A stretch of DNA of 64,000 nucleotides from Escherichia coli (GTDB lineage Bacteria > Pseudomonadota > Gammaproteobacteria > Enterobacterales > Enterobacteriaceae): NCBI RefSeq assembly GCF_011045215.1, contig NZ_CP049201.1, one strand, 5' to 3'. Below are positions 8,623 through 11,498 of the stretch, in pieces. The notes under the pieces are model-generated. The model was not told the DNA's origin, did not search any database, and saw only the letters and a program-made list of their open reading frames with translations. Every line of letters starts with the position of its first letter. The first letter of the stretch is position 1. The position numbers and the translations under genes are program-made.

Positions 8623-10180
8623 TCGCCTGAAAAAACTGTTTCCCGGTAACAGCAATACCAGCAGTACTGAGACAACTGCCCCGGAGGTTGCACACCAGTC
8701 AGAACGTCTGCCTGAAGGTTTTTATATGCCCCGGACTGCGGAGGAACTGACGTCCACACCACACAGGAAACAGTGCCTGAAACAGCTGTGGGAAAACAGC
8801 AGTATGCCATCCGACGTGTATCAGCAGTTCTGTCTGGCGCCGGTACAAAAACTCCTGATGGCGGCGCAGAACGTTCCCGCTGCCAGAGACTCCCGGTGGG
8901 CAGATGCCAACGGTTTTGGCGACCTGACGCTGCAGTTCACCACCTATGCCGTTCGTCTGGCCAGAGGATATATGTTTCCGCCCGGTGCCACACCGGAAGA
9001 GCAGGCCGCACAGTCTGGTGTATGGAATGCCGTGGTGTTCTGGTCGGCACTGTTTTATCACCTGCCACTTCTTGCACACCTTGAGGGTGAACTGGTCAGT
9101 GGAAAGTTATGGCAGCCGGGGATGTCATCACCGGATGAGGCATTTCGTTTTCGTTACAGACAGCAACGTCTGCAGGACACAGAGGCACAGCAACTGGCAG
9201 CGGTGATGGCCGGGCAGTTGTTACCTGAGGGAGCGACTGCTTGGCTGGCCACTGTACCGGGGGCATTACAGAATCTGGCGGGAGCGGTCTGGAATCAGCA
9301 TCCGGAGATGGCATTGATTCGTTCAGTCCTGAAAACAGCGGCAGAAGAGGTGGAGAGTCCGCTTCTCGCGTTGCCAGTAACGGAACCCGTAACGGCACCT
9401 TTGCCTTCAGAAACCACTGTGCAGTCTGAAGGCAATGTGCCATCTGAGAGCCAGCCAGAAACATCAACAGAGGCCATTGCGCCGGAAATGCCGGCGGTCG
9501 TCACGGAGGTGGGCGAATTTACGCTGCAGCCATCTGTTTCAGGAACCGGTGAGGCAGAAGCAGTAGCCCCGGATACGTTGCAGTCTGCAACAGACACGGA
9601 GAAAAAGTCACCTGAGGAGCAGAGCCTCCATGATGATACCGATATATTGCTGAGTCTGTTTTCTGCTGCAGATGACCATGCTGCAGTAGTGACAGCGGAT
9701 GGAGAATGCTTACAGGAAACGCAGATGCTGATTGATAATGATCATTCTCAAAGAAAACATGAGGATGCCTCTATCACATTGATTTCCGGAAGCTCTGCTC
9801 CGGAAGCTGTTATTTCAGAAGGAGAGATGTTTATAAACTGGTTAAAAAAAGGAGTGAGAAACGGGGAAATTAGCCTGAACGGAAAAAAAGATAAAATTCA
9901 TATTGTTGCCGGCTTTGTTTTTTTACCAGTACCGGGAATTTTTTATGAGTTTACGAAAGCAGCAGGCATCCCTGCAGACAAAAAAGATGATATTCAGGCA
10001 TCGTTTGAACGCCTGAGCATTCATAAGCGGCGGGATAACCGACGCTTTTATTTTGCACATTTGTGTGAAGAGCCTGAAAACAGAAGTCGTTTTAAAACGC
10101 TAAAAGGTTATCTGGTAAAAGGCAGGCAGCTCCTGGATGGACAGGAACTACAGGACAGCCGTTATCTCTTTTTTCCATGA
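8615..10180 (+). CDS. Hypothetical protein, helicase-coupled partner (521 aa), no recognisable catalytic motif, central Pro/Glu/Thr-rich low-complexity segment
   Basis: Start ATG 8615 preceded by AGGAGG and overlapping the helicase stop by 8 nt (ATGCTTAA); no Walker A or nuclease motif seen. Confidence 0.6.
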   Translation: MLNRLKKLFPGNSNTSSTETTAPEVAHQSERLPEGFYMPRTAEELTSTPHRKQCLKQLWENSSMPSDVYQQFCLAPVQKLLMAAQNVPAARDSRWADANGFGDLTLQFTTYAVRLARGYMFPPGATPEEQAAQSGVWNAVVFWSALFYHLPLLAHLEGELVSGKLWQPGMSSPDEAFRFRYRQQRLQDTEAQQLAAVMAGQLLPEGATAWLATVPGALQNLAGAVWNQHPEMALIRSVLKTAAEEVESPLLALPVTEPVTAPLPSETTVQSEGNVPSESQPETSTEAIAPEMPAVVTEVGEFTLQPSVSGTGEAEAVAPDTLQSATDTEKKSPEEQSLHDDTDILLSLFSAADDHAAVVTADGECLQETQMLIDNDHSQRKHEDASITLISGSSAPEAVISEGEMFINWLKKGVRNGEISLNGKKDKIHIVAGFVFLPVPGIFYEFTKAAGIPADKKDDIQASFERLSIHKRRDNRRFYFAHLCEEPENRSRFKTLKGYLVKGRQLLDGQELQDSRYLFFP

Positions 10181-10237: not shown

Positions 10238-11230
10238 ATGAAAACTCACGATGTTGACAGCCTCTGGGATAATCTGATGGATGAGTATTTTTTTTGTAAG
10301 TCGTTACGGAGAGCCACGGAGTGGAGTTATCGCAAGGTGTTGTCGGGGTTCCGGAAGTTTGTTGGTTTTCACCGGACTCCTGACAGCATTGTTCGTCGTG
10401 ATGTTCAGGAATGGCGTCGTTTTGTGCTGAAAGATCAGGGGTTAACTTCCCATACCTGGAATAACAAGGTGAGGCATATGCGTGCGATTTATAACTTTGG
10501 AGAAGAATCTGGGTTGATCACTGTTTCAGAAAATCCTTTTAGTGGCATGCTGGTTAAGCAGGAAAAAAGACGGAAGAAAACGCTGACAAAAGCACAGATC
10601 TCGCGGATTGTGCTTATTCTGCAACAATTTTCGGAAGCAGAAAATCAGTACACCGGACTTTATATCAAATGTGCCATAAGGCCAGCGTGGTTCTGGCTGA
10701 CGGTGGTGAATACCCTGCGTTACACCGGTATGCGTCTGAATCAGTTGCTGCATTTACGCCTAAAGGATGTTTGTCCGGCAGAAAAATGGATCGATTTACG
10801 GGCTGAAGGTAGTAAAACTCACAGAGAATGGCGTATTCCGGTTGCGCGTCAGTTACAGCCACAACTGCAGAAACTACTGGATGAAGCCGTCAGACGGGGA
10901 GCCACACCGGAAGACTATCTTTTCCACTACAAGCGTTTTGTTGTGCCGGTGTCAGAAGCAAAACGTATAACGGGTTTGCCGGATGAGCAGCCTGTGAAAT
11001 CGTTTTTCCGCAGATTATCTCAGGAGTGTGGTTTTCAGGTGTCTCCACATCGTTTCAGACATACACTGGCGAGTATACTGATGAGCACTCCGGAGCGTAA
11101 TCTTCACCTGGTGAAAAACATGCTCGGACACCAGAACGTATCAACCACAATGGGATATGTGGAGATGAATCTGGAGATTGCCGCACAGGCACTGGAGCAT
11201 GAACTGGAGGTGTTCACTGACAGGCTGTAA
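10238..11230 (+). CDS. Tyrosine site-specific recombinase / integrase (330 aa)
   Basis: C-terminal catalytic region HRFRHTLAS ... LGHQNVSTTMGYVE (R-H-R-Y family); adjacent to tRNA-Phe. Confidence 0.85.
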   Translation: MKTHDVDSLWDNLMDEYFFCKSLRRATEWSYRKVLSGFRKFVGFHRTPDSIVRRDVQEWRRFVLKDQGLTSHTWNNKVRHMRAIYNFGEESGLITVSENPFSGMLVKQEKRRKKTLTKAQISRIVLILQQFSEAENQYTGLYIKCAIRPAWFWLTVVNTLRYTGMRLNQLLHLRLKDVCPAEKWIDLRAEGSKTHREWRIPVARQLQPQLQKLLDEAVRRGATPEDYLFHYKRFVVPVSEAKRITGLPDEQPVKSFFRRLSQECGFQVSPHRFRHTLASILMSTPERNLHLVKNMLGHQNVSTTMGYVEMNLEIAAQALEHELEVFTDRL

Positions 11231-11422: not shown

Positions 11423-11498
11423 TGGTGCCCGGACTCGGAATCGAACCAAGGACACGGGGATTTTCAATCCCCTGCTCTACCGACTGAGCTATCCGGGC
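11423..11498 (-). tRNA. pheU: tRNA-Phe (GAA)
   Basis: Reverse complement reads GCCCGGATAGCTCAGTCGGTAGAGCAGGGGATTGAAAATCCCCGTGTCCTTGGTTCGATTCCGAGTCCGGGCACCA. Confidence 0.95.

Follow-up and report, generated by a model that had tools for sequence, protein, structure and literature searches.

The stretch at nucleotides (nt) 9355–9650 (+ strand) of a 64,000-nt segment of Escherichia coli contig NZ_CP049201.1 (assembly GCF_011045215.1; hereafter the window) encodes the disordered, acidic middle of a MOBH-type TraI protein of an integrating conjugative element (ICE) of the SPI-7/PFGI-1 family, situated at tRNA-Phe (pheU). The segment probably functions as a flexible acidic tether that also bears a partner-docking motif. 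A disordered middle between two domains is an ordinary feature of this family and has already been described; the modest new points made here are the negative charge of the linker across the family, a short DDTDxLLSLF motif within it, a clade of Enterobacterales tRNA-Phe elements whose TraI lacks catalytic motifs, and the integrase as the constant neighbor of TraI.

Identity of the TraI Protein and Properties of Its Linker

The protein, which the initial annotation called the partner of an adjacent helicase, is on sequence grounds a MOBH-type TraI (TraI_2 plus TraI_2_C) of a conjugative element. It matches Pfam TraI_2 (PF07514; E 3.4e-20, model positions 4–193 of 324 only) and TraI_2_C (DUF1528; E 1.6e-17), and exceeds the cut-off of TIGR03760 ("integrating conjugative element relaxase, PFGI-1 class"; 206.8 bits vs. 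161.4); RefSeq annotates it as a TraI-domain protein. The best matches both by sequence and by fold are the Protein Data Bank (PDB) entries 2IPQ and 3KQ5, with the C-terminal domain matching 2IPQ (STY4665 of Salmonella Typhi) at E 7e-22. With TraI_2, TraI_2_C, and a disordered middle of ~145–150 residues (a region of variable length in the family), the protein has the architecture by which MOBH-type members are recognized.

The segment lies inside an open reading frame (ORF) at 8534..10180, where it corresponds to residues 274–373 of the 548-aa reading; counted from the ATG at 8615 it corresponds to residues 247–346. This ATG is almost certainly the true start of TraI, because AGGAGG is present upstream at 8602–8607, the RefSeq start of the TraI gene of E. 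coli UMNK88 is its equivalent (with an 8-nt overlap with the upstream gene), and the initial methionine is invariant, homologues down to 33% identity all starting M-[LF]-x-x-[LI]-K. Residue numbers therefore refer to the 521-aa protein from ATG 8615.

The 100-aa stretch is rich in E (15%), T (13%), P (12%), and S (11%), has one aromatic residue, and carries 20 D/E against two K/R (net charge −18), so that the acidic Pro/Thr/Glu-rich composition initially noted is real. The fraction of P/T/S/E/Q in 30-aa windows reaches 0.73, compared with 0.1–0.4 in the flanking domains. Across TraI, the lowest net charge of any 100-aa window is −21, a value reached in only 59 of 20,000 shuffles of the protein; thus, the clustering of charge is beyond chance. 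The label "low-complexity" applies in the sense of compositional bias; the window entropy of the linker is 3.0–3.3 bits, which is not true low complexity, and the only DNA repeat identified in it by Tandem Repeats Finder is a 12-bp duplication (1.9 copies) at 9377–9399.

An AlphaFold2 model of TraI alone, built from a 75-sequence alignment, contains a helical domain (residues 31–250) and an alpha/beta domain (residues 396–521), both with a predicted local distance difference test score (pLDDT) above 90. Residues 251–395 (~145 residues) have pLDDT 38–67, with a short helix at 341–347 as their sole secondary structure. A region of low pLDDT between two domains with pLDDT >90 supports both disorder and the two-domain split, as the initial annotation had proposed along with a helical N-terminal half and a basic C-terminal domain; net charges are −4 for the N-domain, −25 for the linker, and +6 for the C-domain. 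The range 9355–9650 falls within the linker but ends too early: the disordered segment extends over approximately residues 251–400 (nt 9365–9814), of which 9355–9650 forms the first two thirds. Over its whole length, the linker contains 19% D/E and 3% K/R.

The features of the module are as follows (all coordinates refer to the window):

7042..8622, + strand: UvrD-like superfamily 1 (SF1) helicase, from partial NCBIfam UvrD/PcrA/Rep matches
8615..10180, + strand: TraI-domain protein, 521 aa, MOBH-type, PFGI-1 class, of the motif-less "MOBH3-like" clade, from Pfam and TIGR03760
8705..9364, + strand: N-terminal TraI_2 domain, residues 31–250, with an HD-phosphohydrolase-like helical fold
9365..9814, + strand: acidic disordered linker, residues 251–400, from pLDDT 38–67 and composition
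9377..9399, + strand: 12-bp tandem duplication GTAACGGAACCC (1.9 copies), encoding VTEP/VTAP, from Tandem Repeats Finder
9515..9544, + strand: degenerate first linker motif (motif A), EFTLQPSVSG; the form in homologues is L[AGST]S[AS][LIFV]
9629..9664, + strand: acidic-hydrophobic motif B, HDDTDILLSLFS, residues 339–350, from conservation and a predicted helix at 341–347
9815..10177, + strand: C-terminal TraI_2_C domain, residues 401–521, basic (+6), with a winged-helix-like alpha/beta fold
10238..11230, + strand: XerC/XerD-like tyrosine recombinase, the island integrase, from NCBIfam tyrosine recombinase matches
11423..11498, − strand: tRNA-Phe (pheU), the attachment site at the island end, from ARAGORN

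Variation and Charge of the Linker Across the Family

When 1.84 billion cluster representatives were searched without a profile, 653 relatives were retrieved, and both domains could be delimited in 88 of them. Among these 88 representatives, the inter-domain segment ranges from 24 to 352 aa (15-fold; median 152) and always carries a net negative charge, lower than that of either domain (median −10.8 per 100 aa). The N-domain is neutral, and 75 of the C-domains carry a net positive charge. The linker is only 24–67 aa long in 15 representatives, and the Coxiella burnetii protein 3KQ5 (14% identical, solved as a single chain of 393 aa) has a short linker rather than a long acidic one; thus, a long linker is not obligatory for the architecture. 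The initial annotation had named absence of the linker from homologues of the same function as evidence against its proposal, and the family goes half of the way toward such an absence, with linkers that are shrunken in these members.

Among close relatives, no region of the protein evolves faster than the first part of the linker (67–97% identity, with indels, compared with 92–99% for the N-domain), and the 12-bp duplication coincides with a 4-aa length polymorphism (matching indel in P0011 and P0072). Relatives from E. coli and Salmonella (P0031, P0056, P0072, and P0110) are 92–99% identical to the window TraI up to motif B; past it (9665–10177), identity is 22% in the remaining linker and 36–38% in the C-domain. 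Because identity collapses right after motif B, the linker appears to be a recombination junction and the C-domain a swappable module. This pattern implies a mosaic TraI gene, in which the C-domain module would have been exchanged by recombination with the breakpoint inside the linker.

The charge pattern is also compatible with an autoinhibitory or DNA-mimicking function, as initially suggested, in which the polyanionic linker would fold onto the basic winged-helix C-domain, or onto a DNA-binding surface of the N-domain, and compete with DNA, restricting binding to the cognate oriT or adaptor. Such a function is compatible with tethering as well, to which it could be an added role. However, AlphaFold2 gives no confident contact between the linker and either domain (pLDDT 38–67), the total charge of the linker does not track that of the C-domain among family members (r = −0.16), some members have short linkers, and full-length TraI of the gonococcal genetic island cleaves oriT slightly faster, rather than slower, than the relaxase domain on its own (Heilers et al., 2019; PMC6736028). 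We therefore regard autoinhibition as unlikely, albeit with a real chance of being correct.

Conserved Motifs Inside the Linker

Motif B of the window TraI (HDDTDILLSLFS, residues H339 to S350) is invariant in close relatives at H339–D343, L345, L346, L348, and S350; variants include ADDTDALLSLF, QNDTQALLSLF, and EEDMQALLSLM, and the form in the Pectobacterium loci L012–L014 is QNDTQALLSLFS. The 20-mer peptide for motif B is EEQSLHDDTDILLSLFSAAD. A 14-column hidden Markov model of the motif scores 3–22 bits in 60 related loci, compared with a maximum of 0.7 in 360 shuffled proteins, and 44 of 73 long linkers match a relaxed B-like pattern, compared with an expectation of 5.8 from shuffles (maximum 12). 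Motif A, L[AGST]S[AS][LIFV], occurs in 18 of the 73 (shuffle mean 1.5) and always 28–48 aa upstream of B; in the corresponding region of close relatives, F302, L304, Q305, V308, and G310 are invariant.

A hydrophobic motif with acidic flanks and a terminal L-x-L-F is also present, 55–100 aa before the C-domain, in 14 of 26 representatives that retain catalytic motifs (examples being DDTDNILALFND and DATDVMLSLFDQ). The occurrence of motif B in the clade with intact HHH and HD motifs as well would place its origin before the loss of catalytic residues. In Xenorhabdus, TraI proteins that have no C-domain and no nearby helicase end in DDTQTLLSLFQ; the retention of motif B in these proteins ties it to the N-domain rather than to the helicase or the C-domain. 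The downstream recombinases are ~46–60% similar with or without strict motif B, and no co-variation signal was obtained. Docking of motif B on TraI's own domains was considered and is unsupported by the AlphaFold2 monomer model.

The linker could alternatively be a passive, functionless spacer, with a composition that merely reflects lack of constraint. This would suit its status as the least conserved part of the protein, its indels and slippage-type 12-bp duplication, and its 15-fold variation in length. It would not account for a net negative charge held in all 88 representatives, for motifs A and B occurring well above shuffles and in a constant order (A 28–48 aa before B), or for a motif B that outlasts loss of the C-domain, and we consider it quite improbable.

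The L-S-L-F core of motif B could also suggest recruitment of the replisome, in which the motif would bind the beta sliding clamp and bring DnaN and Pol III to the nicked or excised element for rolling-circle replication. The beta-clamp-binding consensus is QL[SD]LF, and LLSLF fits four of its five positions and lies in a disordered region, as is usual for clamp motifs. The motif is conserved across hosts, the UMNK88 element has its own replication genes, and replication of the related ICEclc after its excision depends on traI and oriT (bioRxiv 10.1101/451864). Against this, the consensus Q at position 1 is absent and is conserved at no fixed position; in an AlphaFold2 model of a DnaN-(GGGGS)6-peptide fusion the motif is helical at pLDDT ~50, no higher than in TraI alone, although this is a weak test, DnaN itself being only moderately modeled (mean pLDDT 64.5) from a shallow alignment (DnaN homologues 87–93% identical); and the literature searched contained no link between relaxases and clamp-binding motifs and nothing relevant on LLSLF. 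We consider clamp binding very improbable.

Absence of Catalytic Motifs From the N-Domain

The window TraI was aligned with family members that bear catalytic motifs, and lacks all of these. The alternative 3H motif SExHHH reads ARDSRW, the H117 position (LDH) reads GDL, and the HD/K motif LLHDIGK (ligands H161-D162 and K165) reads LFYHL-P; the Y212/H215 stretch RDYxLH reads LQ-DTEA, in a part of the alignment that is of moderate quality. The same absence extends to all of the 60-odd Enterobacterales loci retrieved, and the whole clade shares the ARDSRW reading at the 3H position. Both the 3H and the HD motif are retained by more distant members from Pseudomonas, Halomonas, and Burkholderiales and by one Citrobacter locus, with proteins of 600–660 aa. 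The window TraI also falls below the cut-off of the MobH equivalog NF041494 (86.8 bits vs. 200, over positions 5–222 of 340); the Pseudomonas homologue L064 scores 342 bits against it, over positions 4–340. Because the motifs are absent and NF041494 is not reached, we classify the window TraI as a member of the TraI_2/TraI_2_C family rather than as a demonstrably active HD-type relaxase. The motif-less N-domain is nonetheless the best-conserved part of the protein (92–99% in relatives).

Many MOBH relaxases are built of TraI_2 and TraI_2_C with a middle of ~50–200 aa between them that shows little conservation and is putatively disordered, and a "MOBH3" clade that includes the 2IPQ and 3KQ5 proteins is devoid of catalytic motifs (Heilers et al., 2019; PMC6736028). 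The window TraI appears to fit this clade, having both domains, no 3H or HD motif, and kinship with 2IPQ and 3KQ5. The 2IPQ protein, STY4665 of Salmonella Typhi SPI-7, has a different C-domain allele, the comparison being made by the C-domain alone. TraI of the gonococcal genetic island, the MOBH2 prototype, shares the three-part architecture of the window TraI, and small-angle X-ray scattering of it indicates two globules with an extended region between (PMC6736028). Unlike the window TraI, it has 850 aa, a middle of ~300 aa, and an N-terminal amphipathic helix, as well as the alternative 3H, HD, and Y212 residues, which are essential for Mn2+-dependent oriT cleavage, all of which the window TraI lacks.

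Two further systems bear on function. In Pectobacterium atrosepticum, the putative relaxase ECA0613 of HAI2 is involved in mobilization of the ICE, according to its citation in PMC6736028 (Vanga et al., 2015); the Pectobacterium loci L012–L014, which are not confirmed as HAI2/ECA0613, encode a motif-less TraI 37% identical to that of the window, with motif B, a downstream recombinase, and tRNA-Phe. In IncA/IncC TraI (MOBH1), a C-terminal winged-helix domain binds the oriT adaptor MobI (bioRxiv 10.1101/2025.04.21.649884). IncA/IncC TraI shares with the window TraI an N-terminal TraI_2 domain and a C-terminal winged-helix domain; in IncA/IncC TraI the latter acts as a module for specificity and recruitment, a precedent for what the tethered C-domain of the window TraI may do. 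The IncA/IncC module is a MobI-binding domain (MIBD) and not TraI_2_C, and the N-domain there is catalytically intact.

The loss of catalytic residues raises the alternative that HD-fold TraI proteins of the motif-less clade are adaptors derived from nucleases, in which the acidic tail with DDTDxLLSLF would be essential and would bring a universal partner to the element's integrase-bound end, while another protein cleaves the DNA. Candidate partners would be the host sliding clamp or replisome, the coupling protein, and the neighboring integrase. We regard this proposal as rather doubtful.

Island Context and Gene Neighbors

The gene order is helicase, TraI, recombinase, and tRNA-Phe, followed by the E. 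coli backbone genes yjdC/dicD, dsbD, cutA, dcuA, and aspA. The three-gene module is found beside pheU at 93–96% nucleotide identity in 21 complete E. coli genomes. In UMNK88, the same module ends an element of ~66 kb between cadC and pheU that carries ParA/ParB, an SPI-7-type DnaB-PI helicase, STY4528-family replication proteins, topoisomerase III, and SSB, together with a TraD coupling protein, TIGR037xx mating-pore genes, TraG, and ArdC; judged by this gene content, it is a complete SPI-7/PFGI-1-type ICE.

In a scan of one genome per species (71 loci), a tyrosine recombinase is located at most 700 nt downstream of TraI in 52 of 61 eligible loci, and 26 of the 47 loci scanned for tRNA-Phe have it after the recombinase. 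A helicase is adjacent upstream of TraI in only 21 of 62 loci. The constant neighbor of TraI is therefore the recombinase/integrase, not the helicase. The helicase as an obligate partner of TraI is rejected on this count and on the persistence of motif B where no helicase is present.

The initial annotation had placed the protein in a sensor/effector role next to the helicase, and a related proposal is that it forms a subunit of a helicase-containing anti-phage defense system such as Gabija. The upstream helicase partially matches GajB-type UvrD models in PADLOC, and the helicase and TraI genes overlap by 8 nt. However, the PADLOC matches of the helicase are to generic SF1 stretches, PADLOC gives no match for TraI or the recombinase, TraI has the domains of a relaxase family, the module stands at the integrase/tRNA end of an ICE, and the helicase is a minority neighbor in the locus scan. 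On the PADLOC result and the survey of gene context, the defense role is rejected, its probability being close to nil; the sensor/effector role is likewise unsupported.

The overlap of the helicase stop with the TraI start suggests translational coupling. The helicase itself likely starts near 7108 (MSLTPTDEQ...) rather than at 7042; tblastn matches begin at residues 16–23, and RefSeq, which names the 97%-identical UMNK88 gene "UvrD-helicase domain-containing protein," agrees. The C-terminus of the helicase forms an acidic tail of its own, SPSEDGENDAVYGQEDENA.

Several genes recur 0.2–3.5 kb upstream of TraI (L002–L068): a DUF1281-like gene (34 loci), a small N6-DNA-methylase-like gene (33 loci), and ArdC (nine loci), with the N6-methylase-like gene ~230 nt before TraI where no helicase intervenes. 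Taken together, these genes make up a conserved backbone end of the tRNA-Phe islands. Xenorhabdus genomes (L025–L052; e.g., L029:7001-8014 and L040:7001-7894) contain several copies of a TraI_2-only gene of 295–345 aa, which clears the TIGR03760 cut-off with 236 bits, lacks TraI_2_C, and has the same tyrosine recombinase downstream and sometimes tRNA-Phe. These loci look like a reduced, multi-copy island family.

The cargo at positions 1–7000 of the window has a GC fraction of 0.35–0.38 apart from an autotransporter. It includes an EAL-domain cyclic di-GMP phosphodiesterase-like ORF (781–1569), a UidC porin-like fragment that is probably a pseudogene (1804–2277), the AIDA-I/MisL-type autotransporter (2997–5549, minus strand), and a small RamA/SoxS/MarA-family regulator (6365–6721, minus strand). 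Among complete E. coli genomes, none matches positions 1–7000 as a whole; the autotransporter alone matches, partly on plasmids. Immediately upstream of the module in the related UMNK88 ICE, a cargo slot (L001:8743-14392) holds a set resembling a cyclic-oligonucleotide-based anti-phage signaling system (CBASS), comprising a nucleotidyltransferase, ThiF/E1, JAB/MPN, and a SAVED effector. An IS4-family element interrupts the set, and an inverse autotransporter comes after it. It appears that this slot is a hot spot for defense and adhesin cargo.

Proposed Role and Significance of the Linker

Tethering and docking are the likely functions of the linker. By our proposal, the linker would tether the HD-fold TraI_2 domain to the basic winged-helix TraI_2_C domain as a flexible acidic spacer that does not stick to DNA, so that each domain could contact a different site or partner in the relaxosome at the oriT/att end of the element. 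The winged-helix C-domain may, in analogy to the MobI-binding domain of IncA/C TraI, act in specificity or recruitment. In addition, the linker would display the amphipathic DDTDxLLSLF, which would dock a putative partner common to all these elements.

Several points weigh against this proposal. The N-domain lacks every catalytic motif that is essential in gonococcal TraI and, because these motifs are absent, the label of a working relaxase rests on the genetics of relatives (HAI2 ECA0613, cited in PMC6736028). The 15 representatives with short linkers get by with 24–67 aa, and motif B is found in just one of them; thus, neither linker length nor motif B is universally required. Domain boundaries were extrapolated from the query, and the relaxase domain of the catalytic clade is ~100 aa longer, so that linker lengths in that clade are overestimated. 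Motif B has pLDDT ~50 in the monomer model and docks confidently on neither TraI domain. Finally, only ~11.4 kb of the island of this strain, its terminal part with cargo genes, helicase, TraI, and integrase, lies in the window.

Elements of the SPI-7, PFGI-1, and ICEclc type spread virulence and resistance genes in Enterobacterales and Pseudomonas, and the side observations reported here could help their study. The middle region of these proteins has been described in print as having "little to no sequence conservation," yet it has a constant negative charge and a short motif, which makes it a target for mutagenesis. The Enterobacterales tRNA-Phe clade, without the motifs essential in the gonococcal protein, sharpens the question of which protein nicks oriT.

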